A model generated the notes under the pieces. The model did no database searches. It was not told where the DNA came from and saw nothing but the letters and a program-made list of their open reading frames with translations. This document shows positions 26,722 through 42,094 of a stretch of DNA of 64,000 nucleotides, piece after piece. This stretch comes from a virus. The translations under genes were made by a program, and so were the position numbers. The stretch's first letter is position 1. The number at the start of each line of letters is the position of its first letter. The stretch lies in the IMG/VR virus record IMGVR_UViG_3300010885_033832, positions 31,417 through 95,416 of that record. The stretch is one strand, 5' to 3'.

Positions 26722-26967
26722 TCACGCCTGAGGGTAGGCGCGAGTGGACAGGCTCTCGGTGCTCTGAGCGAGTCGGGCAAACGTCTTCGCGAGACGGTAC
26801 AGTGCGTCTCCGACGACGACGCGGACGCGGTACTCGGCGTCGACCTTCGGCGTGAAGGGGTAATCCTCCGTGATGGTCGCAACGATGTCGGCATAGCACG
26901 TCGCGCAGACTGCGTCGTACGCTCCGTCGGCGAAGTTGGCAGAGCAAAGGCGCTCGTCGTGGTACAT
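26722..26967 (-). CDS. Cassette gene, 81 aa
   Basis: GAAAGGA SD; cassette architecture. Confidence 0.8.
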   Translation of the reverse strand: MYHDERLCSANFADGAYDAVCATCYADIVATITEDYPFTPKVDAEYRVRVVVGDALYRLAKTFARLAQSTESLSTRAYPQA

Positions 26968-27114
26968 GGTCGATTCCTTTCGGTTGGGGAGGCGTGTTCC
27001 TCCGTGACTCCACTCTATTGGCGAGCGCCGACATGTAACGGTATCCCCTCCCCATCGGCGAGCGCCGCACAACGACAAACAGCCTCCCCGAAGGGAGGCT
27101 GTCGGTCGTCCAAG

Positions 27115-27309
27115 TCAGGCGAAGTCGGGGAGGTGATACTTTGCGGCGAGAGCGGATTCCATTGCTTGGAGCGAGGCGATGGACTCGGCGATGTGGTCGC
27201 GCATATCTCCGACCTCGTTCGCTTTCCACAGCACCATCGCGTCGGTGAGTGACGCGGCGGCGGCCGCGTAGTTTGACAGCACAGCGCTGTCGGTAGCGTC
27301 GTACAACAT
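27115..27309 (-). CDS. Cassette gene, helical 64 aa
   Basis: GAAGGAG SD; cassette architecture. Confidence 0.8.
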   Translation of the reverse strand: MLYDATDSAVLSNYAAAAASLTDAMVLWKANEVGDMRDHIAESIASLQAMESALAAKYHLPDFA

Positions 27310-27420
27310 GGTGACTCCTTCGATTCGGGAGGCGTGTTCCTCCGTGATATCAGACTACGGCACGGCACGGACAAACAACAACCTCCCCTCCCCGAATCGG
27401 GAGGAGAGGTTGTCGGCGCG

Positions 27421-27615
27421 TCAGAGGATTATCGGCTCAACGACTAGGCGCGTTTCGTTCAGCGCACCGCAACCGCACCGATACCATTGCGCGATTCGAC
27501 CATCGGTGCGCCAGATGATATGAATGGTCGGGTGTTCGTGACCGACTCGGCATCGTGGGCAACGGTGATTCAGCGGGGAACGGCGTTCCTCCGTCTGGAT
27601 GATATCGTCTAACAT
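27421..27615 (-). CDS. Cassette gene, zinc-ribbon 64 aa
   Basis: CPRC...CGCG; GAAAGGA SD. Confidence 0.75.
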   Translation of the reverse strand: MLDDIIQTEERRSPLNHRCPRCRVGHEHPTIHIIWRTDGRIAQWYRCGCGALNETRLVVEPIIL

Positions 27616-27712
27616 TCGGGATTCCTTTCGTTCGTGATTCCAGACTACGGCCGCAACGGCATAGACGGCGATAGCCCCCCTGACGGTGTGTCAGAGGGGC
27701 TACCGTATGGCG

Positions 27713-27949
27713 TTACGCTTGGCGAGCGTATCGGGCAACCGCATCGGCAATTCGCGTACCGATGTAGTCGGGCGTGAGCATCGAACGGCGAGGCGCGCGT
27801 GCTTGGGCGAACCGTCCAGAGGTGTTGCCGACCTCGTGAACGATGACAACATAATCGCTACGCGAGATGTTGCCGAGGTAGCGGAGTAGGTACTCCGCAC
27901 CCTCGTAGGTGAACGGCGTGAGGGTGCCGCGTTTGAGTGTGATGGACAT
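27713..27949 (-). CDS. Cassette gene, 78 aa
   Basis: AAAGGAGG SD. Confidence 0.8.
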   Translation of the reverse strand: MSITLKRGTLTPFTYEGAEYLLRYLGNISRSDYVVIVHEVGNTSGRFAQARAPRRSMLTPDYIGTRIADAVARYARQA

Positions 27950-28040
27950 TGTGTCCTCCTTTCGTTTTCAGACTACGGCATACCCCCGACACGAAACAAC
28001 CAACCCCCACCGCATAGGCGGTGAGGGTTGGCGTTTGGCG

Positions 28041-28271
28041 TTACCGCGAGCGCCGAAGACTACGGCGGTACACTTCTTCCCCGACATTCCAACTGAGTAG
28101 GGCAGAGGCGACAACGATACAACCGACAACCATAACGCGGTCGAATGTAGCGTTGTAGGACAGTCCCGACATCTCGGCGGAACGGGCGAGGCTATCGGCG
28201 GTAAGCGCGGTGACAACCGCAACCGCATACAGCCCCAGCGCCATAAGGGCGCGGAATCGACGAATGGACAT
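28041..28271 (-). CDS. Cassette gene, two-TM membrane protein
   Basis: GAAAGGAG SD; two hydrophobic segments. Confidence 0.75.
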   Translation of the reverse strand: MSIRRFRALMALGLYAVAVVTALTADSLARSAEMSGLSYNATFDRVMVVGCIVVASALLSWNVGEEVYRRSLRRSR

Positions 28272-28374
28272 TCCATTCTCCTTTCGTTGGTGATATCAGA
28301 TTACAACGGCGAGCGCCGAAACGGCAACAACCCCCCACCGCATAAGCGATAGGGGGTTGTCGGCGGCGACTACT

Positions 28375-28479
28375 TCATCGGTTGAAGACGAAGTCGAGGT
28401 CGTGCGTGTGGTACGCAATTCCCTCGGTGTCGCGAGTACCGCACTCGGGGCACGGGTCGGTGAGGTCACCAGTAGCCAT
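28375..28479 (-). CDS. Cassette microprotein, 34 aa (CPEC, HTH residues)
   Basis: AAGGAGG SD; cassette architecture. Confidence 0.65.
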   Translation of the reverse strand: MATGDLTDPCPECGTRDTEGIAYHTHDLDFVFNR

Positions 28480-28601
28480 AAGAGTCACCTCCTTGGGGCA
28501 ACGGCGTGGGGCGTGTCCCCCACGCCGACAACGATACGCGGCCCCACGCCGACAACGCAACAACCCCCCACGCCGATTGGCGTGAGGGGCTGTTGGTGGC
28601 G

Positions 28602-29003
28602 TTACTCGGCGGTGGCTTCGGCGGTAACGGGGGCGTTCGCGTTGGACACTACAACGCGCTTGGCTTCAGCGGTACACCAGAACAGGTCGTGACCGAGCGT
28701 TTCCGCTTCGATTTCGACATTCGTTCCCGTGCGGTCGTCGGTCTGCCAATCGCGAACGCGCAAGCGACCGACGACTACGATACGGTCGCCCTTGTTCAGC
28801 GACGCCATTGAGTTCACGGCGAGAGCGCGGAACGCCGTGACCGTGTACCAATTGGTCGAAGCGTCAAGCCACTTTTCAGTAGCCTTGTCGTATCGTCGCT
28901 GTGACGACGCGAGGCGGAATGAAGTGATGGGCAGACCTTCTGCCGTCACGATATGGCGTGGTGTCGTGGCGATAAGCCCCGTCACCGTGAGCGTGTCGCT
29001 CAT
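28602..29003 (-). CDS. ssb: Single-stranded DNA-binding protein (actinobacterial SsbB-like, no acidic tail)
   Basis: ITSFRLASSQRRYD...TNWYTVTAFRALA...LNKGDRIVVVGRLRVRDW...EIEAETLGHDL. Confidence 0.93.
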   Translation of the reverse strand: MSDTLTVTGLIATTPRHIVTAEGLPITSFRLASSQRRYDKATEKWLDASTNWYTVTAFRALAVNSMASLNKGDRIVVVGRLRVRDWQTDDRTGTNVEIEAETLGHDLFWCTAEAKRVVVSNANAPVTAEATAE

Positions 29004-29116
29004 GTGATTCTCCCTTGCTTGTGTGAGCCGTGTTGCCCACACCTCAACGATAGCGCGGCCACACCCGACAACGCAACAACCCCCCCACCGCATAAGCGAT
29101 AGGGGGTTGTCGGCGG

Positions 29117-29296
29117 TTAGACAGGTTCGTTGTTGATTGTTCCGTTGGCGCAGGCTTGGTTGTATTCCTCAACTAGTCGCGTTGCGTTGTCCACTACGAT
29201 AAAGTTCGCACCTACTCCCTCACCGAAGATACCCTCTTCGGTAATCGCGCGAGTGATGAGCGTGTGGGCTTGTTTCAGGATTTCGTAATCCGTCAT
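29117..29296 (-). CDS. Cassette gene, 59 aa (MTDYEILKQAH...)
   Basis: GAAAGGA SD; below the track length cutoff. Confidence 0.75.
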   Translation of the reverse strand: MTDYEILKQAHTLITRAITEEGIFGEGVGANFIVVDNATRLVEEYNQACANGTINNEPV

Positions 29297-29364
29297 TTCG
29301 TTCCTTTCGTTCGGTTGAGAGTGTAGCGCGCCACCGTGTTCCCAACGGTGGCGCGCCGTGTCAC

Positions 29365-29547
29365 CTATTCGGTGACGGTGGCGTTCGCCGTGTTATCGGC
29401 GTTAGCCGTAGAGAGCTTTTCGATTTGGGCGTTGATTTCGCCCAACCGCATAGCGTTCTCCACCATCAACTCTGCCACCGTGTTTCGCATTTCTTTTAGG
29501 GTGGCGATTGAGTTTTCCAGAAACTCAATCTGTTCTTGCTTGTCCAT
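29365..29547 (-). CDS. Cassette gene, coiled-coil 60 aa
   Basis: GAAAGG SD; heptad pattern. Confidence 0.75.
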   Translation of the reverse strand: MDKQEQIEFLENSIATLKEMRNTVAELMVENAMRLGEINAQIEKLSTANADNTANATVTE

Positions 29548-29655
29548 TGGACACCTTTCGATTAGCGGGGCGTGTTCCCCACATTCACAACGATACGCCG
29601 AACGCCGAACAAACGCCAACACCCCCCACCTTTCGGCGGGGGGTGTCGCGTTCCG

Positions 29656-29781
29656 TTATTTCAGTTTGTCCAAGATTGCCATTATCTCGGCGCGTTGTGC
29701 TTCGGGCAACGCTTCGATTCGTTCCGCAGCGTCGGGGACGAAAAGGCTATCCAAATCGTCGGGGTTAGTCCAGTCGAACAT
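29656..29781 (-). CDS. Cassette microprotein, 41 aa
   Basis: GAAAGGAAACA-ATG. Confidence 0.75.
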   Translation of the reverse strand: MFDWTNPDDLDSLFVPDAAERIEALPEAQRAEIMAILDKLK

Positions 29782-29886
29782 TGTTTCCTTTCGGGGGCGG
29801 TTCCCCCATACCGCAAAGGTAGCACCGGCATCGGCCAGAACGCAAACACCCCCCACACCGTTAGGCGTAGGGGGCGTTCGTTCGCG

Positions 29887-30069
29887 TTACTTGTTCTTGG
29901 ACTTGGTGAACGGTGAGTGGTTCATCGCGTAGATGTATTGGCGTTGACGGCGATTGAACCGTGGGCGGTGCTTGAGCAGATAGAACCAGTTGATCGTGAA
30001 TAGCGTGACGGCGATACCCGTCACGAAACTCGCGACAACCGTCACGATGAATATCGTGTCGTTGGACAT
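29887..30069 (-). CDS. Single-TM membrane protein, 60 aa
   Basis: N-terminal TM helix and basic tail; GAGGG SD. Confidence 0.7.
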   Translation of the reverse strand: MSNDTIFIVTVVASFVTGIAVTLFTINWFYLLKHRPRFNRRQRQYIYAMNHSPFTKSKNK

Positions 30070-30134
30070 TGTTTCCCTCTCGTGAGAGTTGGGAACGGTG
30101 TGACCCTCTCGCGAGAGCCACACCGTTCGATGGA

Positions 30135-30422
30135 CTAGGGGAGGCGAACCGAAGTCACCGAAGCGACATTGGTGAACTCGCCTTTGGATACCGCTTCCGC
30201 GATAGCAGGGTACGCCGAGAGAATGGATTTGGTGTCCGTTGTCTTGCGTTCGGTGACGGTTACGCGAGCGATTGTCTGCCCTTTGTATTCCACCGTTCCC
30301 TCGCCGACCGCGCCGATGATGAGCGCGCGGAGCGTTTCACTCTGCTTGGTGAGTGTGTCGATTTCCGCCTTGAGAGCGCGGAACTCGGCGACCGCGTCAG
30401 CGACCTTTTTGGTTACGACCAT
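30135..30422 (-). CDS. Coiled-coil/beta protein resembling the C-terminal part of YqaJ-type exonucleases or Gam-like proteins; paralog of 43441-43734
   Basis: KAEIDTLTKQSETLRALII...YKGQTIA...DTKSILSAYPAI. Confidence 0.65.
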   Translation of the reverse strand: MVVTKKVADAVAEFRALKAEIDTLTKQSETLRALIIGAVGEGTVEYKGQTIARVTVTERKTTDTKSILSAYPAIAEAVSKGEFTNVASVTSVRLP

Positions 30423-30534
30423 TGTCGTGTCCTTTCGTTGGGAGAGGGCGTGTCCCTCTCGTGATTCCACTCTACGCGGCCACACCCGACAAACGCAAAC
30501 ACCCCCCACCTTTCGGTGGAGGGTGTTCGTGGCG

Positions 30535-30789
30535 TTAGCCGATGTAGCGAGCGTAAACGGTAACGCGCTTACTGCGGTTGGAGTTCTTGCGCGAAGTCGC
30601 TTCAAACGACCCAGCAGGGGTGAATCCAATCAAGATACCTCGCTTGATTGACACCACATAACTTGCTGGTGCGTTGTCGCTAACGACGGCCCATTCTCCT
30701 GGATTTGCTTTGAGGGCTTTAGCAATCGCCCCGTACTTACCTGTTTGCACAGCGCGCTTCGGCGGTGCTTCCCAGCGGATTTTTACCAC
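30535..30789 (-). CDS. Conserved actinophage small protein (NPGEWA...VYARYIG)
   Basis: AAAGGAGA SD; motif familiar from actinophage hypotheticals. Confidence 0.8.
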   Translation of the reverse strand: MVKIRWEAPPKRAVQTGKYGAIAKALKANPGEWAVVSDNAPASYVVSIKRGILIGFTPAGSFEATSRKNSNRSKRVTVYARYIG

Positions 30790-30897
30790 GTCTCTCCTTT
30801 GCGAGGGGCGTGTCCCCTCTCGGTTCTACTTTACGACCAGAGCGAACACAACGCAAACAACCCCCCCACCCGATAGGGCAGGGGGGCGCGGTTGGGG

Positions 30898-30990
30898 CTA
30901 GTACCCGAACACCCACTCACCTTTGTGTTCGCAGGTGAAGAGCGCACCGCACTCGTCGCACGGCACTAGCACAATCTCTTCGTTGTCCAT
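30898..30990 (-). CDS. Cassette microprotein, 30 aa (CDEC..C.H)
   Basis: AAAGGAGA SD; own promoter and terminator. Confidence 0.65.
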   Translation of the reverse strand: MDNEEIVLVPCDECGALFTCEHKGEWVFGY

Positions 30991-31100
30991 CGGTTCTCCT
31001 TTGTTGGCAGGGCGTGTTCCCCACATCTCCACCGTACGCGATCGTGGGGCGAACCGACAAACACCCCCCACCCTTTCGGGTGAGGGGCGTTCGGTTCAGG

Positions 31101-31589
31101 CTACCAACTTGCTCGGTAGGTGAAGTCACAATCGGCGAGTGACTTGTTGGCGAGTATCTGCGAGAGTTCGTCACGAGTGGTTTCCAAGTCCTTCCAGTAC
31201 CACTCGTCAATCTCGGTCGAACCGAAGAAGAAGCCAGCCTGTGGTGGCAGGTGTTCTTCCGCGATTGCCGTTCGGTTTGCTTCGCTCGCGCCGAGAATGA
31301 TGTCGCACAGGTTTCGCAACGCTTCCAAGCCGTCACGCGGTACGCCGATTTCTTGGCACTCGTCAAGCCCATCAGCGAAGTTGCTCACGAACCATTGGTG
31401 AATGGCGTTCGCTTTCCGCCAATACATTACCGTCACAGCGAGGGTCGCAGACGGCGAGTATTCGGGCAGTATCGCAGGGTCGAACCCTGCCGTTTCCAGC
31501 ACACTCGCAAACTGCTCGCGGTCTGCTTCGGGTCGGTGTTCCCAACCCGATAGGTACTTCTCGGCAGATAGATACATATCCAGTCCCAT
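31101..31589 (-). CDS. Conserved phage protein (MGLDMY...YWRKANAIHQWF family)
   Basis: Recognisable widespread phage motif; AAAGGA SD. Confidence 0.85.
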   Translation of the reverse strand: MGLDMYLSAEKYLSGWEHRPEADREQFASVLETAGFDPAILPEYSPSATLAVTVMYWRKANAIHQWFVSNFADGLDECQEIGVPRDGLEALRNLCDIILGASEANRTAIAEEHLPPQAGFFFGSTEIDEWYWKDLETTRDELSQILANKSLADCDFTYRASW

Positions 31590-31698
31590 TATGTTTCCTT
31601 TGCTTGGTGTGAACCGTGTTGCTCACATTTCCAAACTACGGCACCGGCGGCCACAACGCAAACAACCCCCCACCGTGAGGTGAGGGGTTGCTCGGCGG

Positions 31699-31905
31699 TC
31701 ACTCGTATTGAGCGTGGATTACATCCCAGCAGGGGAAGCAGTACGGCTCTCCGTTGTCGCGGTGAGTTTTCTTACCACAGGCATCACAGGGAACTTTCCC
31801 CTCTCCACCGTCATAGCACGAATAGCAGGTGTAACCGTCTTCTTCGAGAATGTCCTCGTCGAGTTGGTCGCAGGTACAGGTCGGGTTGTTCGGGTTCTTT
31901 TTCAT
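31699..31905 (-). CDS. Cys-rich zinc-finger protein, 68 aa
   Basis: Four Cys pairs; TGATG coupling. Confidence 0.7.
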   Translation of the reverse strand: MKKNPNNPTCTCDQLDEDILEEDGYTCYSCYDGGEGKVPCDACGKKTHRDNGEPYCFPCWDVIHAQYE

Positions 31906-32033
31906 CAGTTCCCCTCGCAATCGTGTCCGTAGGACAGTTCCTGCTCGTCAACCTCGTTGGTCGGGTCGAACACTCGCGAGCATTCGACACACTTGAGCAG
32001 AAGTCCTGCTCGCGTAATGGTGAGTTCCATCAT
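31905..32033 (-). CDS. Zinc-finger microprotein, 42 aa (CVEC...GHDCE)
   Basis: GAAAGGA SD. Confidence 0.7.
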   Translation of the reverse strand: MMELTITRAGLLLKCVECSRVFDPTNEVDEQELSYGHDCEGN

Positions 32034-32096
32034 CTCGGTTCCTTTCAGGGGCGGTTCCCCTCTACTTCCAATCTACGCGATCGGGGCGCAAACGCA

Positions 32097-32191
32097 AAGT
32101 ACCCCCCGAGCGAAAGGGATAACTCTCGGGGGGCGTTTCTTTGTGTGTGGCGTTACCGTCAAGGGGTAAACACGATTCCCTGACAACCACT
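32097..32191 (-). ncRNA. Candidate ~95-nt sRNA filling a gene-less cassette
   Basis: TGnTAGCCT -10 at 32198-32203; no SD or ORF; hairpin with G.U pairs and loop AAUCGUGUUUAC; terminator 32100-32134. Confidence 0.6.
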
Positions 32192-32275
32192 CCGTCTAGG
32201 CTACCACACCGTGACGCGCGCAAAATACCAAAACAACGAACCCCCCTACCGAAGTAGAGGGGTTCGCGGTGACCG

Positions 32276-32590
32276 TCAGACGGTGAGGTTGCTTGCTTGG
32301 ATTTCAGCGAGCGAGCGCGGTTCCCAGTAGAGGTCGCGTTCGACCATCATTCCCATCGGACCGACCACGCCTGAGAGTTCCGAGAGCGAGAAGTATCCCA
32401 ACTCCATCTCGAAGCCGTTGACCAGACCGAAGAACTGGTCTTCGCCATCGAACTCGGTTGCGTACCAAGTCCAGTTCGCCCAGGGGGTGAAGTACTTGAC
32501 CGTAGCCATCGTTTCCTCAAGCGACTTGTTCTCGTTCGTGTAGAGCGGTGGAAGTGCTGCGCGCACCTCGTCGTTCATCAGTTCCATCAT
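32276..32590 (-). CDS. DUF2958-family protein
   Basis: LPPLY...VKYFTPWANWTWYATEFDGED.FFGLV.GFE.ELGYFSLSEL...GP.G..VERDLY. Confidence 0.88.
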   Translation of the reverse strand: MMELMNDEVRAALPPLYTNENKSLEETMATVKYFTPWANWTWYATEFDGEDQFFGLVNGFEMELGYFSLSELSGVVGPMGMMVERDLYWEPRSLAEIQASNLTV

Positions 32591-32692
32591 TTCCTTTCGG
32601 GGAGAGTGTTTCTCTCCACACTTCGACTCTACGCGCCGACCTCGCAAAACGCAAACAACCCCCCTACCGAAGTAGGGGGGCGTTCGGGGGGA

Positions 32693-32818
32693 CTAGTCCT
32701 CGTCGCGACAATCCCAGCAGAGCCAAGAACCGAGGTTGTCGAACGCGTCGATGGGGTCACCGTCGTCGTATGCGCCACATTCGTCGCACACTATTTCGGC
32801 ATAAGGACTGATAGCCAT
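32693..32818 (-). CDS. Acidic zinc-finger microprotein, 41 aa
   Basis: CDEC...CWDC; GAAAGGA SD. Confidence 0.75.
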   Translation of the reverse strand: MAISPYAEIVCDECGAYDDGDPIDAFDNLGSWLCWDCRDED

Positions 32819-33046
32819 TGTGTTCCTTTCGGGGGGAGCGTTTCTCCCCACGCTTCTACAATACGACTCCGGCATCCGTAACGCAACGAACCCCCACCCG
32901 AAGGTGGGGGACTCGTCAGCGGTCGCGGTACTGCCAGTAGGTGTATAGAGTCCCGACGATGAAAGCGATCACATTCGGGAGGACGATTAGAACGAATATC
33001 AGCACTGAAGAAAAAAGGGGGAGCAGTTTCCCACTCCCCCAACCGA

Positions 33047-33370
33047 CTAGGCGTTAGCAGTTTCGCGCACGTTGACAGGGAACCACTGGTCGGCAACGAC
33101 CTCAACGAACGTGCCAGACCCTTCATCGTGTTCCCAGTCGCGGACCGTGACCGAACCGATGACCGTGATGTGGTCACCTCGGCGAACCGTTGCGATGATG
33201 TCGTACGCCATTTGGTCGAACGCCGTGAACGTGTAGTAGTTCCACTGGTCACCGCGCTCGTCGCGCTTCGTGCTGATTCGGAATGACGTAATCGCCGTTC
33301 CCTCGCTGGTCACCACTTGGCGTGGTGTTGTGGCAACAAGTGCGTTGCCGAGAATAATCGTGTCCGACAT
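33047..33370 (-). CDS. ssb: Second, shorter SSB paralog (OB fold only)
   Basis: ATTPRQVVTSEG.AITSFRI...NYYTFTAFD.MA...GDHITVIGSVTVRDW. Confidence 0.85.
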   Translation of the reverse strand: MSDTIILGNALVATTPRQVVTSEGTAITSFRISTKRDERGDQWNYYTFTAFDQMAYDIIATVRRGDHITVIGSVTVRDWEHDEGSGTFVEVVADQWFPVNVRETANA

Positions 33371-33456
33371 TCTGTCCTTTCCTGTGGCAGGCGTTTCCTC
33401 CCACACTTTGACACTACGCGAAAAAGGGGAGAGGCGCGAGCCTCCCCCCTCCGACA

Positions 33457-33579
33457 CTACTTGTCGAATCGCCAATCCTCGTCTGTGTCGTAGACGGCTT
33501 CCTCGGTTTCGTCCTCTGGGTCGTCTGGCGGAGTGTAGTACGCCCGCTCCGCGCGACCCTGGTCGCTGAAATATCCCAT
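33457..33579 (-). CDS. Highly acidic microprotein, 40 aa (MGYFSDQG...DEDWRFDK)
   Basis: GAAAGGA SD; cassette architecture. Confidence 0.65.
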   Translation of the reverse strand: MGYFSDQGRAERAYYTPPDDPEDETEEAVYDTDEDWRFDK

Positions 33580-33683
33580 TTCATTTTCCTTTCGGGGAGG
33601 GATTTCCTCCACACCTCAACCGTACACCCGACCCCGGACACGAAACAACCTCCCCCACCCGAGGGTGAGGGATGCTGTCGGGA

Positions 33684-34115
33684 TTACTCCCAGATGTTTC
33701 CGTCTGCTCCGTATTCCTCCCAAAGTACTTGGGCTTGAGCAATCGCTTCGTCGAGTTCGTGGAAGACCTCGCTAAACGATTCGTCTCCGTCACGGAGCGA
33801 GACAACCTCGAACCACGAATTGTTGATCCAATCGAAGTATTCCGCACCCTTGGCTTCCCATTCGGCAAGGTCGGCGTCCGTCTTGATACCGAATGACTCA
33901 AGGTCGTCCGTGTAGCGCAACACCTCGTAGTCCGAGAGTAGAGCCTTGCGAGCGTGAATCCGCATCTCTCCGTTGCGATAGACGCGGAACCGAGGTGTCG
34001 TGAAGTCGGCCCACACCAATTCCCAATCGTGAGTCCAAGTGTGGAAAGCCGAGTCCTGTCGAGCCGAGTCCGGCTCCAGAGGGAGGCTCACGCCTCCCTC
34101 CTTCGCCTGGCTCAT
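33684..34115 (-). CDS. Acidic Trp-rich hypothetical protein
   Basis: 143 aa; ATGA coupling. Confidence 0.8.
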   Translation of the reverse strand: MSQAKEGGVSLPLEPDSARQDSAFHTWTHDWELVWADFTTPRFRVYRNGEMRIHARKALLSDYEVLRYTDDLESFGIKTDADLAEWEAKGAEYFDWINNSWFEVVSLRDGDESFSEVFHELDEAIAQAQVLWEEYGADGNIWE

Positions 34116-34522
34116 TCGGATTCCTCGATGTCGCGGAGGTAGCCGACCTTGAACATCGCGCCCATCGGCTCGTCGTGCGAGTATCGGGTGCAGGTCAGGT
34201 TGCCCGACTCAGGGTCGTACTCGAAGTCAAGGCGGTACTGCCCATTGATTGCGAGCGTGTCAACGATGGTGCCGACCTTACAGATGGCGTGTCCCGAAAC
34301 TCGGTCCCAATTCATCGCCTCGCTCCAGATGACGATGTCCTCGGTGTTGGTGATTCCGTGACGACTCGTCCATTCGGGGAGAAAGTTCTCGCTGTAGTCC
34401 TCTTGGTTGTCGTCCCAGCACCCGTGACAATCATCGCTCGGTGTGGATTTGTCGGTCACTTCGTCGTACACCTCACAGGTACACTCGGTCGTGACGACGG
34501 CTTTCATAATTGTGTTGGTCAT
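34112..34522 (-). CDS. Acidic hypothetical protein (RYSHDEPMG)
   Basis: 136 aa; GAAAGGA SD. Confidence 0.8.
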   Translation of the reverse strand: MTNTIMKAVVTTECTCEVYDEVTDKSTPSDDCHGCWDDNQEDYSENFLPEWTSRHGITNTEDIVIWSEAMNWDRVSGHAICKVGTIVDTLAINGQYRLDFEYDPESGNLTCTRYSHDEPMGAMFKVGYLRDIEESE

Positions 34523-34548
34523 AACTTTCCTTTCCGCAGGGAATCTCC

Positions 34549-34824
34549 CTACACCTCAACACTACGCTTCGACCTAACTGTGGTCAAGTACCCCTCCCAC
34601 TCGTTCGTCAGGTGCCCAGCGGAGATGAGTATGTCCCCAACCGTGAGTCCGAGTCCCTTGGCGAGTAGCGCGAGGTAGTCACTCGACACCTCTTTCTTTC
34701 CGTGCTCGACCTCAGAGATGTAGGCGTTCGATACTCCCGAGGCTCGGGCGAGCTCGAGTCCGGTCATACCGAGATCGTGTCGGCGTGCGTAGATCGTGTA
34801 CCCAATGGCAGCGCGTGATTTCAT
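34549..34824 (-). CDS. XRE-family HTH regulator, ClgR-like
   Basis: ELARASGVSNAYISEVEHGKKEVSSDYL resembles ClgR YLSEVERGxKExSSE. Confidence 0.85.
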   Translation of the reverse strand: MKSRAAIGYTIYARRHDLGMTGLELARASGVSNAYISEVEHGKKEVSSDYLALLAKGLGLTVGDILISAGHLTNEWEGYLTTVRSKRSVEV

Positions 34825-34882
34825 GTCGTTCCTTTCGTGAACGGAGCGAAGCGCACCCCCGAAAGGGTGCGCTCCGTCTTGG

Positions 34883-35209
34883 TCAGTCTTCCTCGTCCTC
34901 GTCAAAGCCCTGAGGAATGAGGTCGCAGAACCCATCGTTCGGGTTCTCGTGGTTGGTGTAGACAGCGTTCACGAACCGAAGGCCGCACGACTCCTCGTAC
35001 CACTCCTTCACCTTTTCCAGCATGGCGTATGAGTCCATGTCGCTCGCCGAGATGAGAGGGTCGTAGCCGTACTCCGCCATTTGCTTCATCTGCTCCTCGT
35101 CCATCAAGATATAAATCTTGTGGCAGGTGTCGAACGCGATGCCACTAGCCTCCGAGAGTGCCGACTCAACAGCACCCCAGCCAGTCTGACCTTTGAGTTT
35201 CAGTTTCAT
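34883..35209 (-). CDS. Conserved phage protein (IAFDTCHKIY...SCGLRF)
   Basis: 108 aa; GAAAGG SD. Confidence 0.8.
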   Translation of the reverse strand: MKLKLKGQTGWGAVESALSEASGIAFDTCHKIYILMDEEQMKQMAEYGYDPLISASDMDSYAMLEKVKEWYEESCGLRFVNAVYTNHENPNDGFCDLIPQGFDEDEED

Positions 35210-35308
35210 TATGTGCCTTTCCGTGGCAGACCATCTGCCCACAACATCACTCTACGCCGACAGCGAAACCAACGCAAGTAGGGGGTCACCGAAGTGACCC
35301 CCCATTGC

Positions 35309-35629
35309 CTAGCGATTGGTGCGTGACCGAACGAACGCGTCAGCGTGTTGAGCGAACTGCGAACCGAGGTCCGAGAACGAGCGGTCAAGACCCGACCCCG
35401 TAGATTCGGTGTCAATGAACGCGAGGAGCGTGACACGAGCAAGTGCTTGGTGCAACTCGTCGTAGTACTCGTACCAGTCGTTCGCTACTCCGTCACTCCA
35501 AGCGAGGAGGTATTGCGACCGACCCGTTCCCGTGTCCTTCTCAACGAACGAGATCGTGACCTGCGTTCCGATGAACAACTCGGACAGGTCAATCCTGCGA
35601 GCGGTGACTACTGTGTCGAAGTCCGACAT
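35309..35629 (-). CDS. Cassette gene, 106 aa
   Basis: GAAAGGA SD. Confidence 0.8.
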   Translation of the reverse strand: MSDFDTVVTARRIDLSELFIGTQVTISFVEKDTGTGRSQYLLAWSDGVANDWYEYYDELHQALARVTLLAFIDTESTGSGLDRSFSDLGSQFAQHADAFVRSRTNR

Positions 35630-35721
35630 AGTGATCCTTTCCGTAGGGAGCGTTTCCCCCCACACCTCAACGATACGCAAAAAAGGAGGAGAGGTCAACG
35701 ACCCCTCCTCCTCTCTTGCGG

Positions 35722-36165
35722 TTAGACCGAAGCGTTCTCGGTCACCGCCATTGCTTCCTGCCAGATACACAGGTTGGTTTCCAGACGGTCACCGAACACG
35801 CGAACCCAGTCCGCGAGGTCAACCGTTTCCTCGGTCACGAATGTCTGGAGCATATTGACGTGGAGGTCAACGGGGTGAGCGTACGAGAACCCGTTGCTTG
35901 ACCAGACGGGGACGGTCACGATTCGACTGTCCTCGTCACTCCGCCAACCGACTCCCTCGGTTCCGATGATGGCGACCCGGGGCTTCCTCCACGAGTCCGT
36001 GTCCTTGAGCGTGACGAAGACCAGCGGTTCGACCTCGCACTTCTCAAGCCCATCGAACTTGCCGTAGGTCAGTTCGAGGATTTTGTGGATGTGCTTGGTC
36101 AACGCCTCGCTGTCCACCTTGTGGGCAATGCAGCCTTTCCTGCGGGATTCATACCTGTCGTTCAT
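35722..36165 (-). CDS. Cassette gene, 147 aa
   Basis: GAAAGGAACACA-ATG. Confidence 0.8.
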   Translation of the reverse strand: MNDRYESRRKGCIAHKVDSEALTKHIHKILELTYGKFDGLEKCEVEPLVFVTLKDTDSWRKPRVAIIGTEGVGWRSDEDSRIVTVPVWSSNGFSYAHPVDLHVNMLQTFVTEETVDLADWVRVFGDRLETNLCIWQEAMAVTENASV

Positions 36166-36250
36166 TGTGTTCCTTTCGGTGGCCGACCCTCGGCCACATT
36201 CCCAAACTACGCGAGAAAGGGGAGAGGTGCAAGCACCCCTCCCCAATCGG

Positions 36251-36745
36251 TCACACGAAGTCGCTGACCGTGTCGCGTTCGCGAGAGACCTTGTAGTCCT
36301 CGTCCGAGTAGAAGTCTTTCGACTGTACCCACTCGTCACGCGCGGTTGACTCTCCGTACTGCTCAACCAACTCCGAAGCGTCAATCTCGTGGTCGTAGGA
36401 AACACCGTCAATCTCAAACTCAACATTGACGTAGCCCATTTCAGAGACCAGTTCGTCCCACATTTCCGAGATGTAATCGGAAGCGAGAATCGGACGAAGC
36501 GTTCCGTACTTCATCATCACGCCGACCTCGTTCTCCCACTCACCGACCTTGTAGTTCTCGAACAACTCCTCGTCTGTGTCGTAGTAGAGGGCGTGTCCGT
36601 CCTGAAGCGCGTTGGCCGCGACCAAGAATCGCGCCCACTTCTGCTCCGTGGTTTCCTCCTCCAACGGAACGCCATTGACACTCACGGCAGTTGCGTTGTC
36701 GAAGCGGTGTTCTTGACCGTCTGCGGTCGAGACAATAACCAGCAT
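36251..36745 (-). CDS. Very acidic cassette protein, 164 aa
   Basis: GAAAGGA SD; D/E-rich. Confidence 0.82.
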   Translation of the reverse strand: MLVIVSTADGQEHRFDNATAVSVNGVPLEEETTEQKWARFLVAANALQDGHALYYDTDEELFENYKVGEWENEVGVMMKYGTLRPILASDYISEMWDELVSEMGYVNVEFEIDGVSYDHEIDASELVEQYGESTARDEWVQSKDFYSDEDYKVSRERDTVSDFV

Positions 36746-36839
36746 TGCTTCCTTTCCGTGGCAGAACCGTTCTGCTCACATTCCCAAACTACGACAAAAG
36801 GGAGGAGGTCGCAATGACCCCCTCCCCTCGTGTCGCTTC

Positions 36840-37166
36840 TTACGCGAAGACCCGACCGGCAATCCCCAGTGCTTCGACCACACGGCTCACGGCGAAGAGC
36901 GAGTCTCCCCCGATGTGCCATTCGTAGAGTTCGTCCATTTCTGGCGCACCGTCTTCGTATCGCTTCCAGTCGTACAGCGTTACTCGAGTACCGTCCTCGA
37001 ACAGCAAGTCCCACTCGGTCGTAACCTTGCTTCCCGAGTCGTTCCCTAGAGAGATGGTTGGTGATCCAAACACCGTCTCGATGTGTTCACGAGTTGTCTC
37101 GATGTACCCTTGCAGACTCGTTCCGTTTGCACCCGAGTCGTTCTCGGATAGTGTCATAAATTTCAC
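36840..37166 (-). CDS. Conserved phage protein (TSLQGYI...LYDWK...EWHIGG)
   Basis: Recognisable phage motif; GAAAGGA SD. Confidence 0.8.
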   Translation of the reverse strand: MKFMTLSENDSGANGTSLQGYIETTREHIETVFGSPTISLGNDSGSKVTTEWDLLFEDGTRVTLYDWKRYEDGAPEMDELYEWHIGGDSLFAVSRVVEALGIAGRVFA

Positions 37167-37220
37167 TGCTTGTTGTCCTTTCGGTTGGTGGTGAGGGGAG
37201 GCCGCAACCTCCCCTCGCCG

Positions 37221-37457
37221 TTACTCGTTTCGTTCGCGAATGAGCGTGAACTCAAACTCGTCCGTGTCCTTGTCGAACGCCCGTTGGAACTCGGCTTCGT
37301 CTTGGAAGTAGAACCAAATCATATTGTCGAAACTCTCGTCCTCCACCATTTTCTCGTAGAGGTCGGGGTCGTTCAGTATGACCACTTGCGCTTCTGTATC
37401 TCCTGGCACGACTTCATCTTTCCAGATGTAGTCAACCCACGTTACTCGTTCAGCCAT
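37221..37457 (-). CDS. Acidic cassette protein, 78 aa
   Basis: AAAGGAAACACA-ATG. Confidence 0.78.
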   Translation of the reverse strand: MAERVTWVDYIWKDEVVPGDTEAQVVILNDPDLYEKMVEDESFDNMIWFYFQDEAEFQRAFDKDTDEFEFTLIRERNE

Positions 37458-37533
37458 TGTGTTTCCTTTCGTTGTGGCAATCCAAGTCAACCACGAAAGG
37501 GGGGAGAGGTCAACGACCCCTCCCCCCTGACCG

Positions 37534-37938
37534 CTAGTAACTAGCGTGTGGAACTACCTCACCGAGATACTTGGCAACATCATAGATGTCCTCAAGCGAG
37601 ATGTGCTTGGACTCACCCTTGTTGTTGTACGCGCTGGCGAACCCTTGGAAGTATCGGTGCTTTTCCGAACCGACTTCCATAATGATTGCTACCCAATCAT
37701 CCGCGAGGTGCTTGATGAACAAGTCCTCCCAGATGATGACGGTGTCCTCGTCTGTCTCCTCGTTGTAGGTCGTGGAGGGCAGACCACCCTCGTCTGTGTC
37801 GAGGAATCCGAACAGCACTTGTCCGTCTTGCTCCTGCGAAATCATCTCGACAGGGTAGTTCATAATGTCCTCGCGGAATGCTTCAGGGTCTTTGACCGCG
37901 AAGTAGTTGGTACGGACCTTGCCGTAGTAGTTCGCCAT
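37534..37938 (-). CDS. Conserved hypothetical protein (MANYY...RTNYFAVKD...EVGSEK.RY)
   Basis: 134 aa; TAATG coupling. Confidence 0.82.
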   Translation of the reverse strand: MANYYGKVRTNYFAVKDPEAFREDIMNYPVEMISQEQDGQVLFGFLDTDEGGLPSTTYNEETDEDTVIIWEDLFIKHLADDWVAIIMEVGSEKHRYFQGFASAYNNKGESKHISLEDIYDVAKYLGEVVPHASY

Positions 37939-38108
37939 TACTCGCTCACCTGCTCGACAATGTTTTCCATTGTGAACTCGCCACCCTGAACAAAGAAGTC
38001 ATCCGAAATCATCTCGTCAAACATCTTTTCCGCTTCCTCGATACTGGCCGCTTCGACCGTGGCTTCGAGGTTCTTGATGAGTGTGGCGTATGCCGTGTAC
38101 TTTTTCAT
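37938..38108 (-). CDS. Small protein with VEAxSxEEA (DpnD/PcfM-like) motif
   Basis: 56 aa; GAAAGGA SD. Confidence 0.72.
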   Translation of the reverse strand: MKKYTAYATLIKNLEATVEAASIEEAEKMFDEMISDDFFVQGGEFTMENIVEQVSE

Positions 38109-38199
38109 TCTGTTCCTTTCCGATCGCGTGACCATCACCCGACCTGTTTCCAAACTACGGCAAAGAGGGAGGAGACGATAGTCTCCCCCCTCCTGTCCG

Positions 38200-38832
38200 T
38201 TACTTCGTGGCGAGTTCGATTGACTTGGGGCAATCGGCGTACCAGCATTCGGGGTCAGTCTCGACCTCGCAGTAGCACTCGCGGTCACGCTTCTGGTAGT
38301 CGGCGTGGCTGTTGGGGATGTCGTACTCCTCGTCCACGATTACCTCACCGTCCTTGAGCGTGAGTTCTCCACCCCAGCCCTGCTCCTCCTCGTACCACCA
38401 CGACATTTCGAGGTGCGGATACTGCTCGGCAAGGGCAGCGACCACGCCACGCGGATAATCCCACGGAGTCTGGAATGTGATTCGGATTTGGTTGTCCTCG
38501 TCCTCGAACTCGATGTCTCCGTCACCAGCGTCCCACTTACAACCCCAGTTGTCGGAGTTCCACGAGTACCAGTTGGTGTCGGTGTTCCCGACCTGCTCGC
38601 CGTTTACAACGCCCCTGCGACCAAAGTAATCGTCCAACTTGTCGGCTGGCGGAGCAATGATGTTCCAGAACGAGAAGCCACCCTCGTTCAGTTTGATTTC
38701 GCCTGTCGGCTCGAAGCCGTCATAGACCATTTCAGGTCGGGGCATTTCCATCTCGCGGAGGAACGATTGGAGTTCCATTTTGTCTCCGCTGGGCGCGGTG
38801 ACGGTCACGCTGTTGTAGACCCAGTTAGGCAT
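38200..38832 (-). CDS. YubB/DUF1281 ferredoxin-like-domain protein
   Basis: MPNWVYN...WYSWNSDNWGCKWD...FQTPWDYP...WYEEEQG. Confidence 0.82.
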   Translation of the reverse strand: MPNWVYNSVTVTAPSGDKMELQSFLREMEMPRPEMVYDGFEPTGEIKLNEGGFSFWNIIAPPADKLDDYFGRRGVVNGEQVGNTDTNWYSWNSDNWGCKWDAGDGDIEFEDEDNQIRITFQTPWDYPRGVVAALAEQYPHLEMSWWYEEEQGWGGELTLKDGEVIVDEEYDIPNSHADYQKRDRECYCEVETDPECWYADCPKSIELATK

Positions 38833-38918
38833 ACTGCTTCCTTTCATCGGGTAGCCAAGTGGCTACATTACAACAATAAACGAAACCCCCCTCCGAGTCA
38901 AGGGAGGGGGGTCGCGTT

Positions 38919-39209
38919 TTATCTGATGGGTTGTATTCGGTAAGCGACCTGTTCGCTCATCTTGGCAGCGAGGAACATCTTGTCGGTTACTTCGGGGAGA
39001 GGCTCGTCTCCCCACCAGTCCTGCTTGTCCACATCAAAGTAGTCGAGCAGGTAGGAGACCATTTCCTCGGAGTAGTCGGAGGTGTATAGCAGGCACTCCT
39101 TGGTGTCGGTCTTGGCGGTCAGGGGCGATTGGAAGAATCCACGCGCAATCCGATTCACATCAGATTCCCAGATTAGTTCCGCTTCGAGAGCGGTGGTTTC
39201 ACTCCACAT
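38919..39209 (-). CDS. Hypothetical protein, 96 aa
   Basis: GGAGG SD; overlaps upstream gene. Confidence 0.72.
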   Translation of the reverse strand: MWSETTALEAELIWESDVNRIARGFFQSPLTAKTDTKECLLYTSDYSEEMVSYLLDYFDVDKQDWWGDEPLPEVTDKMFLAAKMSEQVAYRIQPIR

Positions 39210-39345
39210 CAGTGACCTCCAAGAGCATTGTCTCGGTTTCGATTTCTTTGTACTCCCCCTGACCAATGAGGTTCTGCGCTTCTTCGAGCGTCTCGGCGAT
39301 GACCTCGACTCGTTCCCCTGTGAGGAATGTGTATGTCTTTGGCAT
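39199..39345 (-). CDS. Small protein with VIAETLEEA motif, 48 aa
   Basis: GAAAGGA SD; same motif as 37938-38108. Confidence 0.7.
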   Translation of the reverse strand: MPKTYTFLTGERVEVIAETLEEAQNLIGQGEYKEIETETMLLEVTDVE

Positions 39346-39434
39346 AATGTCCTTTCCGTGAGGAGACCGTCTCCCCACGCTTCCAAACTACACAACAAGA
39401 GGGAGGAGCACAATGCTCCCCCCTCCGTGTGTTG

Positions 39435-39815
39435 TTACTGTGGGCAGACCACCTTGACATTGGCGATGTGCTGGGCGAGAGCAGGTCGCTCGGAGTCCGA
39501 GGCTTCCTCAATCAAAGCCCAGTCGGCTTCATCCCAGTTACTGGTGTCCACCAGTTTGATTCCCTTGGCTACTCCGTACGAACCATCCTCGGCGAAGTAG
39601 GTCGTGGTAGCGACCGGCTGGGTCAGAGTGGCGAGTCGCTGGTTGATGATGTAGTCGAGTTGTTCTTCCTCGTCTCCATCAGGCCGCACCCATTCCTGCT
39701 CCTCGTCATCGAACCACGCCCGTTCGTGAAACTTGGCCATCAACGATTCATCGTCAAGCCAGAAGCCGTCATCGCTCGGATCGTAGTAGACCACGAAGTG
39801 GATTTGCTTGGTCAT
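39435..39815 (-). CDS. Acidic cassette protein, 126 aa
   Basis: GAAAGGA SD. Confidence 0.8.
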   Translation of the reverse strand: MTKQIHFVVYYDPSDDGFWLDDESLMAKFHERAWFDDEEQEWVRPDGDEEEQLDYIINQRLATLTQPVATTTYFAEDGSYGVAKGIKLVDTSNWDEADWALIEEASDSERPALAQHIANVKVVCPQ

Positions 39816-39905
39816 TCTGTTCCTTTCGGTTGGTGTGCCGGGTGGCACGATTCCATCGTACGCCGAAAAGGGAGGAGGCGTTAGCCTCCCCCCTCTCGGT
39901 GTGGG

Positions 39906-40607
39906 TTACTCCCGACCCAACATCTCGATAATGTCGGCAACGGAGGTAATCAGGTTCGCACCACGCTTGATGAGTTCGTGAGTGCCAGCGGAAGTTCCCG
40001 AAGTAATCGGGCCAGGAACTGCTCCGACCTTTGCTCGACGCTTTTTGAGCGCGTGTTTCGCGACGTTGATGGAGCCACTGCGGTAGCCAGCCTCGATAAC
40101 CACGACAGCAACCGAGAGGTTCGCCATCAACTTGCTCCGCTTCAAGAATCGTTCGCGAGTCGGAGCCGTTTTCGGAGGCGACTCCGAGAGCAGGAGTCCC
40201 GTCATCGCGACTCGGCGGAACAGTTCCGAGTGACCCGATGGGTACGCGGAGTCGAGTCCCCCAACAGCGACAACGATGGTGTTCCCACCACACGCCAGAG
40301 TGGCGCGAGTAGCCATTCCGTCAATGCCGTACGCTCCGCCAGTGATGGTGGTGTAGCCACGCGAGACGAGGCCAGCCGCGAAGTCCATCGCGACGTGTTC
40401 GCCGTAGCCCGTTGAGGCACGTGCGCCCGTGAGGGTCACGGCGTTGTTGAGGTCGGAGAGCAGGTCGAGGTTCCCCAAGTACCAGAGGTCGGGAGCCTTG
40501 TCACCAAGTCGCCTCTTGAGAAGCAGAGGGTATCGCTCGTCGGTGACGGGCAGGAACCCGATGACTTCGTGTGGGACTACGACGTTCTCTTGTTCGGTAT
40601 CTATCAT
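39906..40607 (-). CDS. dprA: DprA/Smf DNA-processing protein (Rossmann core only)
   Basis: GARASTGYG...TGGAYGID...GGLDSAYPSGH...SESPP...EAGYRSGS...VGAVPGPITS. Confidence 0.95.
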   Translation of the reverse strand: MIDTEQENVVVPHEVIGFLPVTDERYPLLLKRRLGDKAPDLWYLGNLDLLSDLNNAVTLTGARASTGYGEHVAMDFAAGLVSRGYTTITGGAYGIDGMATRATLACGGNTIVVAVGGLDSAYPSGHSELFRRVAMTGLLLSESPPKTAPTRERFLKRSKLMANLSVAVVVIEAGYRSGSINVAKHALKKRRAKVGAVPGPITSGTSAGTHELIKRGANLITSVADIIEMLGRE

Positions 40608-40692
40608 TGTGTTTCCTTTCGGTTGAGTGACGGGTGTCACAATTCCACATTACACAAGAAAAGAGGGGAGCGCAAGGCTCCCCTCCCTCTCG

Positions 40693-41415: not shown

Positions 41416-41503
41416 AATGTCTCCTTTCGTTGGACAGTCTCAACGATACGCGGTGTAATAAAAAAGCGCAAGGAGGGGGTCTCCCCCCTCCCTGCGTTGT
41501 CGG

Positions 41504-42094
41504 TCAGTAGTGGAAGTCCACTGGCACGAGGAACCATTGGTCGGCACTCTCGCTGTCCTCCATGTCCTTGAGGAGGTAGCGCATTTCCGTGACACCGTTG
41601 GTGATGTCATAGAAGTAGGTGTCGGGCAACCAATACTCGGCAGCCATGCGCGAGAGATACCCGAACTGGTACATCGTTGAGAGCGGGTCGTACGGGAACT
41701 CGGTCGAATCACTCAGCGAGTACGCGAGGTACTCCTCAACCCGTTCCTCGAACGATTTCCCGTCCTGCTCGTTGCGGAGTTTGATTTCCTCGAGACGGCG
41801 ACGCATTTCGGTAGCGCGTGATTCGAGGCACTCGCGGATTGTCTTGGAGAACTTCTTGGGGTCTTCCGAGAAAGCGATCACATTCATCGTGTCGAACACA
41901 TAAGCGTCAGTGTTCTGGAAGAACCGACCACCACCGACAACGAACCAGTCGTACCAGTCCGCGTAAGGCCGCTCGTCTCCCGAGAGAGTGTTGTTGACCT
42001 CATGGGCCGCGCTCTCTTTGGCCTCGTCCATGTCAATGCCGTTCTCGCCAATGGTCTCGTTGCTCTTGACGGCAACCCAATGTAAAGTGTGCAT
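41504..42094 (-). CDS. Conserved phage protein (WYDWFVVGGGRF...VDFH)
   Basis: 196 aa; GAAAGGA SD. Confidence 0.8.
   Translation of the reverse strand: MHTLHWVAVKSNETIGENGIDMDEAKESAAHEVNNTLSGDERPYADWYDWFVVGGGRFFQNTDAYVFDTMNVIAFSEDPKKFSKTIRECLESRATEMRRRLEEIKLRNEQDGKSFEERVEEYLAYSLSDSTEFPYDPLSTMYQFGYLSRMAAEYWLPDTYFYDITNGVTEMRYLLKDMEDSESADQWFLVPVDFHY

Follow-up and report, generated by a model that had tools for sequence, protein, structure and literature searches.

The small-gene array and its leader hairpins

The DNA analysed here, called the window below, is a stretch of 64,000 nucleotides (nt) covering bases 31,417-95,416 of a 95,416-base IMG/VR virus contig (IMGVR_UViG_3300010885_033832) with a completeness rating of ~56%. 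Between ~26 and 45 kb it carries an array of small genes, all on the minus strand, so that the hairpins in their leaders are to be read on that strand. The array comprises roughly 40 small early-type gene cassettes, ~30 of which begin with a hairpin. Reading the sequence alone, the original prediction had described these hairpins as repeats with a conserved AACACG loop and covarying stems. We propose, with moderate confidence, that they are 5'-terminal stem-loops protecting ~30 short, mostly monocistronic phage mRNAs.

The window encodes a T4-type large terminase, an AAA ATPase, a ribonucleotide reductase, an M23 peptidase and an open-ended frame of 4,415 aa. Its nearest named relatives at the protein level are the Actinomycetia phage DSL-LC01 (43% identity) and large Microbacterium and Gordonia phages. 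Since the DNA runs containing the stretch are freshwater or lake metagenomes and the protein relatives are actinophages, the window is best assigned to an uncultured freshwater actinophage. Megablast of the array region against the INPHARED phages gave no match. About 30 array proteins were compared with Pfam and PHROGs; most have no Pfam family, the matches being two SSB-like proteins, a helix-turn-helix regulator, DprA, GP88 and DUF1281_C. Protein searches returned graded relatives (P0001-P0009, 97-52% identical). The close relative used for comparison, L007, is a syntenic 36-kb IMG/VR contig with 32 units, 86-91% identical to the window (about 88%). At 26-29.5 kb the two form a mosaic, with cassettes gained and lost.

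From 5' to 3', a cassette consists of a long G/C terminator hairpin, a -35-like TTGnnn, a 17-18-nt spacer, cG-TAnnnT, a short GGAA-type discriminator, the leader hairpin (5-10 bp), a linker of 0-9 nt, GAAAGGA, 4-6 nt and ATG. The -10 (TAnnnT) is of the host sigma-A type. The terminator, with its T-run, lies ahead of each promoter and is separate from the leader hairpin, which has no T-run. The -35 falls in the terminator loop in the units at 33-45 kb and in the T-run (TTGTTTGCGTT) in those at 27-33 kb. At 33410-45130 (minus strand), the terminator-loop -35 hexamers include TTGACC, TTGCGA and TTGACT, and the 17-18-nt promoter spacer is made up of the terminator 3' arm and the T-run.

Units were scanned for as -10 TAnnnT, 2-10 nt, hairpin, ribosome site and start codon. 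This gave 30 units on the minus strand of the window (26,967-45,047) against 2 on the plus strand of the whole window; over the whole 95-kb contig, the gene strand has 39 and the opposite strand 2. The -10 is present in all of them by construction of the scan. Independent support for the promoters comes from the T of the -35 TTG, found at 17-18-nt spacing in 29/30 units; moreover, a G stands immediately 5' of the -10 in 24/30. Counting from the -10, 28/30 units have a pyrimidine at position 6 and 28/30 a purine at position 7. A pyrimidine/purine pair at -1/+1 is the usual start-site signature, and transcription is predicted to start 7 nt after the -10. These position-specific base counts were used in place of a promoter scan with the E. 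coli consensus, which gave no enrichment (9 vs 6.0 ± 2.9), the promoters here having TAnnnT as their -10 and a weak -35.

The hairpins are listed below as 5' arm-loop-3' arm, with the start of the following gene. The folding z-score (z), the covariance model R1 and the comparison with L007 are explained further on.

26988-27003 (-): GGAGG-AACACG-CCTCC; gene start 26967; -10 TAGAGT at 27012-27017
27328-27343 (-): GGAGG-AACACG-CCTCC; gene start 27309; R1 30.3 bits
28504-28523 (-): CGGCGTGGGG/CCCCACGCCG, loop GACACG; stem extendable to 10 bp; gene start 28479; R1 22.2 bits
29021-29042 (-): GTGTGGGC-AACACG-GCTCACAC; SSB-like gene, start 29003; z -3.3; identical in L007
29565-29582 (-): GTGGGG-AACACG-CCCCGC; gene start 29547
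29792-29808 (-): GGGGG-AACCG-CCCCC; gene start 29781
30442-30460 (-): GAGAGGG-ACACG-CCCTCTC; gene start 30422; z -2.7; identical in L007
30803-30819 (-): GAGGGG-ACACG-CCCCTC; gene start 30789 (GTG); identical in L007
31007-31024 (-): GTGGGG-AACACG-CCCTGC; gene start 30990
31608-31627 (-): TGTGAGC-AACACG-GTTCACA, with one G.U pair that is G-C in L007; gene start 31589
32047-32061 (-): AGGGG-AACCG-CCCCT; gene start 32033; identical in L007
32598-32620 (-): GGAGAG-AAACA-CTCTCC; gene start 32587
32830-32852 (-): GGGGAG-AAACG-CTCCCC; gene start 32818
33383-33405 (-): TGTGGGAGG-AAACG-CCTGCCACA; SSB-like gene, start 33370; z -2.9; identical in L007
33593-33613 (-): GGAGG-AAATC-CCTCC; gene start 33579
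34535-34553 (-): TAGGGA-GAT-TCCCTG; gene start 34522
35222-35246 (-): GGGCAGA-TGG-TCTGCC; gene start 35209
35642-35664 (-): GTGGGGGG-AAACG-CTCCCTAC; gene start 35629; three changes in L007, one of which converts a G.U pair to G-C
36179-36197, 36761-36775, 38122-38144, 38851-38866, 39357-39379, 39835-39848 (-): hairpins with unrelated loops (1-6 of 12)
40627-40640, 42110-42132, 42621-42641, 43350-43364, 44352-44368, 45061-45075 (-): hairpins with unrelated loops (7-12 of 12)
27615-28300 (-): three cassettes of the same plan without a hairpin; gene starts 27615, 27949 and 28271

All six stems named in the original prediction were found, each on the minus strand. The AACACG loop that it placed around every one of them is present in most; the 28.5-kb copy reads GACACG and the 30.4-kb copy has a 5-nt ACACG loop. 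Its description of the loop drifting to AACCG, AAACG and AAACA in other units was accurate, and AAATC occurs besides at 33593-33613. The AACACG-type loop is indeed gone above ~36 kb, where the hairpin stays with unrelated loops (GGG, CGG, TGG, ACTT, ACCC); the twelve hairpins at 36179-45075 hold the same position relative to the -10 and the ribosome site as in the other units. Across the array, the loops are A/C-rich and U-poor, with at least 17 different sequences, and there are at least 25 different stems. In the AACACG-loop cassettes at 26967-30500 (minus strand), the promoters have TGTCGG, TGTCCG or TGTTCG 10-12 nt upstream of the -10, and along the array the promoter class and the loop class shift together. 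The leader of the hairpin-free cassettes consists of the -10, a GGAATCAC-like stretch and aacGAAAGGA, with folding z-scores of +0.5, -0.6 and +0.2.

The first paired base lies at -2 to +2 of the predicted +1 in 29/30 units, and 0-9 nt separate the end of the hairpin from the Shine-Dalgarno core. When ten predicted 5' untranslated regions were folded, the hairpin formed at the extreme 5' end; the Shine-Dalgarno and the AUG were unpaired in 9/10 centroid structures, and in the remaining one a helix of two pairs reaches the first bases of the Shine-Dalgarno. Folding was also assessed on 40 cassettes picked by gene call only, taking the 40 nt before the ribosome site and using dinucleotide shuffles. 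Cassette leaders had a mean z-score of -1.38, and windows from the coding sequences of these genes one of -0.21 (Mann-Whitney p = 1e-5). The arms have a constant polarity: G makes up 64% and C 9% of the 5' arm, and C makes up 60% of the 3' arm. Inside the stems there are 13 G.U pairs against 3 A.C mismatches (p = 0.02); this excess, taken with the strand bias, points to the sense strand as the one that folds.

With the first transcribed base in or beside the stem, the mRNA would expose no single-stranded 5' end, the requirement of the 5'-end-dependent decay enzymes RNase E and RNase J of Actinobacteria. The hairpin would thus deny these RNases single-stranded entry and would keep the ribosome site unpaired. 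Its most likely job would be to make each cassette's message longer-lived and more translatable, and uniformly so, each short message being structured at both ends once the 3' terminator hairpin is counted. The start site, the folding of the RNA in vivo and the effect on decay are what we infer here. Three functions had been offered for the hairpin: a small RNA target, a boxB-like protein site and a 5'-end stabiliser. The stabiliser is the best geometric fit, because the hairpin begins at the predicted +1. The small RNA target gains a candidate partner at 32,089-32,215, and the boxB-like site finds no boxA-like element, GNRA-type pentaloop or candidate protein; both are taken up below.

5'-terminal stem-loops stabilise the ompA, papA, aprE and T7 gene 10 mRNAs (work cited in PMC3997798; PMC6146998 and its reference 43). 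The array hairpins resemble those of ompA and papA (E. coli), aprE (B. subtilis) and T7 gene 10 in being short and stable, with 0-2 unpaired nt at the predicted 5' end, in having a strong ribosome site close behind, and in the freedom of the stem sequence. As in T7 gene 10, a phage message is bracketed by 5' and 3' hairpins. The known stabilisers belong to single genes with measured half-lives, whereas ~30 copies stand here in one array known from its sequence; neither the conserved loop nor the constant arm polarity characterises the former.

Constraint on stems and loops

The hairpins were compared between the window and L007 in the 15 units that have an orthologous downstream gene, with the following changes.

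Leader hairpin: 5' arm 1/102, 3' arm 2/102, loop 2/68 (arms together 3/204; whole hairpin 5/272)
-10 hexamer: 7/90
Discriminator: 16/90
Linker plus Shine-Dalgarno: 27/227
Upstream promoter (36 nt): 36/540
Codon positions 1, 2 and 3: 50, 48 and 118, each of 600
Terminator: stems 32/394, loops 9/70 (hairpins together 41/464)

The leader hairpin is the most constrained element of the cassette and is under strong purifying selection. The whole hairpin differs less than third codon positions (Fisher p = 3e-15), and its arms less than the terminator stems (p = 7e-4); flanking leader, terminator and third codon positions are 8-20% different from L007.

Covariation was examined in a gap-free alignment of 17 AACACG hairpins from the window and L007, anchored on the invariant loop. 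The alignment holds 21 double-sided stem changes against 7.3 ± 2.2 in shuffles; 0/500 shuffles reach 21, and controls slid along the sequence give at most 7. Paired cells amount to 80.5% versus 63.9% in shuffles, and RNAalifold kept 5 pairs, 4 of them with compensatory changes. The covarying stems noted originally are thus real. Selection, which had been deduced from them, is supported chiefly by the L007 orthologues; covariation among paralogues alone is no proof. The orthologue comparison is the stronger argument because the paralogues are related and a hairpin may be born as a perfect inverted duplication. It appears to be the pairing that matters, not the sequence of the stem, a stabiliser-type feature seen both in the covariation and in the variety of stems.

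Several observations weigh against a simple protective cap. The loops are as conserved as the stems (2/68 vs 9/70 for terminator loops, p = 0.055), where a plain cap should tolerate loop changes. The constant arm polarity, G-rich 5' and C-rich 3', is not needed by a stabiliser. The constraint on the leader hairpin exceeds that on the terminators; short stems tolerate less drift than long ones, which may account for part of the excess. The stems being short, single leaders reach only modest folding z-scores (mean -1.4). Moreover, 10 of the ~40 cassettes and most cassettes of the relatives have no hairpin. Finally, the only RNA run with relatives of this DNA consists of low-depth contigs in which starts are not visible, and the RNase set is assumed from Actinobacteria in general.

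The constancy of the loops could instead reflect an RNA operator, in which, as with boxB/N, the MS2 coat protein or T4 RegA, a phage or host protein reads an A/C-rich loop carried by a G/C stem and regulates translation, decay or antitermination of the cassette set. The two changes in 68 orthologous loop positions, the invariance of AACACG in 17 copies whose stems vary and the fixed polarity of the arms are all in keeping with this idea, which we nevertheless consider unlikely. None of the ~30 array proteins has an RNA-binding domain by Pfam and PHROGs, although small orphan proteins remain without assignment, and the array has at least 17 loop sequences. Antitermination would be superfluous for expression, because every gene has its own promoter. 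Like boxB of the lambda nut/N system, the array hairpin is small, promoter-proximal and situated in the early region of a phage, and its purine/A-rich loop is conserved where the G/C stem varies. It differs in its loops of 5-6 nt, which are A/C-rich (AACACG, ACACG, AAACG, AACCG and others) and unlike GNRA pentaloops. No boxA-like element was noticed near the hairpins in the aligned leaders, where no dedicated pattern search was made, and the family scans gave no N-like protein. There are ~30 copies here, each with its own promoter and terminator, as opposed to two nut sites serving long operons. On the features checked, the array hairpin does not qualify as a nut site, and none of the Rfam families matches it: a search of 24-48 kb gave nothing credible, with one chance-level match (E = 0.43, 16.8 bits vs a gathering score of 88).

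Other ideas were discarded. RNase III sites were dropped because the stems are far too short, and terminators of antisense transcription because the plus strand has no T-run. Integron attC-like sites do not fit, these hairpins being much shorter, without conserved core sites and with a promoter for each cassette. Pairing of the loop with 16S rRNA had no basis with the host not identified. The mycobacterial RNase E cleavage motif RN|CNU (PMC10641625) does not occur in AACACG.

A gene-less cassette with complementary loops

A second explanation for the constancy of the loops came from a search with the loop's complement. There are ten CGTGTT sites on the minus strand of the window, and the one at 32,174 was examined; it sits in the longest gene-free gap of the AACACG/AAAC part of the array, within the following element.

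32089-32215 (-): gene-less cassette, candidate small RNA, between two terminators; L007 9535-9645 (+)

Its layout is a -10-like TAGCCT, 7 nt, a hairpin starting GTGG and a terminator. No other cassette of the array has a promoter-like -10, a hairpin beginning 7 nt further on and a terminator yet lacks an open reading frame. RNAfold of 32,089-32,215 predicts two stem-loops whose loops are unusually large (z -2.5 for the window sequence, -3.7 for that of L007). Loop 1, the 13-nt loop of stem-loop 1, includes CGUGUUU, which is complementary to AAACACG and thereby to the AACACG, ACACG and AAACA leader loops. Stem-loop 2 is the terminator, and its loop of 12-13 nt (loop 2) includes CCUUUCG, complementary to the CGAAAGG of the ribosome site. 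Matches of 5 nt or more link loop 1 to 10/30 leader loops of the window and to 13/31 of L007 (P ~0.0003-0.003 with random 13-mers), and the match of loop 2 to the ribosome-site region has P ~0.003. A run of 62 nt that takes in the promoter-like site and stem-loop 1 is identical in L007, with flanks ~13-15% different (P ~2e-4); the single L007 change in loop 2 lies outside CCUUUCG.

The leader loops could therefore be docking sites for a phage-encoded antisense RNA of roughly 100 nt from 32,089-32,215, whose loop 1 would kiss the leader loops and whose loop 2 would pair with the CGAAAGG ribosome site. One RNA could in this way jointly switch off 10-14 cassettes or change their stability. We put this forward tentatively; it is compatible with a cap role. 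AACACG-type loops might then be address labels, read by the candidate RNA to silence or re-time 10-14 monocistronic early genes, which is possible though somewhat doubtful. The identity of the 62 nt in L007 and the sparing of CCUUUCG speak for the antisense RNA, as do the large-loop fold and loop matches beyond those of random loops, and it would account for loops as conserved as stems.

Against this, the candidate was found post hoc, through the search for the loop complement itself. Its promoter is weak, the best -35-like TTGCGC lying just 14 nt from the -10. Each contact would comprise 6-7 bp only, and the complementary motifs stand in the wrong order for one continuous antiparallel duplex, so that two separate loop contacts would be required. 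At least 16 leader hairpins, or half, have loops that do not match, and the element is carried by one relative only, L007, where it is identical. RNA run X24 has zero depth over 32,004-32,670, which by itself is no evidence against the candidate: the run consists of low-depth contigs of relatives 90-95% identical, shows neither starts nor strand, and gives no verdict on transcription.

Loop-loop antisense control is known from ColE1 RNA I/RNA II and, with two-site kissing, from OxyS-fhlA. The candidate RNA resembles these in presenting two large loops complementary to separate exposed sites, the leader loop and the ribosome site. It differs in that the partner is predicted only, the targets are many instead of one, and each contact is limited to the few base pairs given above. 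If the antisense reading were true, this would be a rare phage small RNA controlling a whole early-gene set through loop-loop contacts, and an actinobacterial phage would have a regulon whose members are marked by their hairpin loops.

Related phages and exchange of cassettes

The original prediction had suggested a covariance-model search of actinophage genomes. With the AACACG hairpin as model (R1), all matches at E < 0.01 lie on the gene strand inside the array, and there was no significant match in 1.26 Mb from 95 related IMG/VR loci. The AACACG family is confined to this phage and L007. A scan of metagenome contigs with a 162-aa array protein found the L007 contig alone to be close, while L105 (53% identical) and others have no units.

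More distant relatives share the cassette plan. In DSL-LC01 (L184, OQ999401 30000-44000), ~28 small genes follow a similar plan with mostly unstructured A/C-rich leaders. The unit there is TCTAAAG-N4-TATAAT-aGAATCA, an A/C-rich leader, aacgacGAAAGGAcaa and ATG, and 3-4 of the ~28 leaders have a hairpin. Its array is, like the present one, a long array of small genes adjoining the terminase, the giant protein and the head genes, and the leader skeleton is alike (-10, GAATCA, A/C-rich stretch, aacgacGAAAGGAcaa, ATG). It differs in its promoter (TCTAAAG-N4-TATAAT), in having few hairpins and in lacking the AACACG family. The cassette idea recurs with almost no hairpins in L186-L191, whose terminase is 66-70% identical; in relatives with a 70%-identical terminase, 2/7 leaders have a hairpin, of the CACGG-AAACG-CCGTG type. 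A low-GC lineage of relatives independently has its own cassette type (L081, 4200-8600, and L082, 7600-12300, both plus strand), with tgtgTATAATac (TATAAT), a 9-11-bp CACGGG...CCCGTG hairpin with covarying variants, AGGAG and ATG. The hairpin is an add-on to the cassette plan of the relatives, and it has been taken up repeatedly as an optional addition. That it is optional in three array cassettes, in DSL-LC01 and in the relatives with the 70%-identical terminase suggests a tuning role and not a part of the promoter or ribosome site.

A pattern search of IMG/VR for GGGAACACGCCC, 3-16 nt and AAAGGA yielded single look-alike leaders in L089 and L091, which were of no help with covariation. In L089, an unrelated GC-rich viral contig, leaders at ~223 and 7951 (minus strand) read GATAGACTGTA..., GGGG-loop-CCCC, AAAGGAG and ATG, and one of the loops is AACACG. 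Eleven low-GC IMG/VR contigs (L087, L090, L092-L095, L097, L099-L101 and L103) have a conserved ~110-nt leader containing GGGAACACGCCC; in L087 and L092 the downstream frame is a tail-fibre-like protein beginning MANPT. This leader is unrelated to the array and may be a structured RNA.

Freshwater metagenome contigs of related phages show cassette-sized joints at 35252/35674, 26987/27339, 28359/29303 and 37459/38111, which remove or replace whole cassettes at repeated promoter and leader sequences. For example, the joint from 35252 to 35674 drops one cassette, and that from 26987 to 27339 introduces a stem of new sequence with ACACG as its loop. Taken as a whole, the cassette is closest to the promoter-early stem-loops (PeSLs) of the T4-type phages RB49/phi1, PST and nt-1, in which modules made of a host-type promoter, a polyG/polyC stem-loop and a ribosome site lie beside orphan genes and bring about their modular shuffling (PMC2839356, PMC4122927). 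Shared features are arrays of small orphan genes and a compact module with host-type promoter, G-run/C-run stem-loop, Shine-Dalgarno and start codon. The fusion of terminator and promoter is likewise common to both, as are the gain and loss of cassettes between close relatives with joints inside the repeated module. The differences begin with the host phylum, which is actinobacterial here, and with a phage unrelated to T4. Since the nearest named relatives are DSL-LC01 and Microbacterium and Gordonia phages and not a T4-type myovirus, the array is an analogue of the PeSLs and not a member by descent. The PeSL stem-loop is a terminator or attenuator, mostly in or upstream of the promoter, a task that would fall here to the separate terminator. 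Each module thus has two stem-loops, the extra one lying in the first 15-25 nt of the transcript and being more conserved than the terminator. Mini-circles and terminator assays belong to the PeSLs; the present array is known from its DNA alone.

This likeness raises the possibility that the hairpin acts at the DNA level, as an element of a PeSL-like mobile regulatory cassette: a read-through attenuator, a hotspot of recombination or template switching, or a by-product of inverted duplication. The PeSL stem-loops of RB49/phi1 are also polyG...polyC, can sit downstream of the -10, terminate transcription and host crossovers (PMC2839356). The joints at leader and promoter repeats fit as well, and the sporadic hairpins in otherwise unstructured leaders of relatives suggest that such hairpins are easily born. 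We nonetheless hold a DNA-level role to be very improbable. A strong, separate terminator already stands ahead of each promoter and the leader hairpin has no T-run. Variable stems lower homology instead of supplying it, and the strict polarity, with G.U in excess of A.C, favours a single-stranded sense molecule. The very strong purifying selection on each hairpin speaks against a mere by-product.

The array extends the PeSL idea, of plug-in promoter/stem-loop cassettes for shuffling accessory genes, to unrelated freshwater actinobacterial phages, and adds a distinct component: a hairpin on the first bases of the mRNA, constrained more than the promoter -10 or the terminator. Actinobacteria possess both RNase E and RNase J. 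The ~30 natural variants, together with the hairpin-free cassettes, form an allelic series for the effects of 5' hairpins on mRNA fate. For actinobacterial synthetic biology, the array could be a source of compact parts: promoters, 5' caps, ribosome sites and terminators.

Finally, two features were observed elsewhere in the window. One open frame of at least 4,415 aa occupies 2-13246 (minus strand) and runs past the window end; at the equivalent position DSL-LC01 has a 9.9-kb gene adjoining the head genes. The large subunit of ribonucleotide reductase (59976-63338, plus strand, 1,120 aa) has an intein-splicing domain signal inside its barrel domain, at 33.1 bits and thus under the Pfam gathering score of 35.8.

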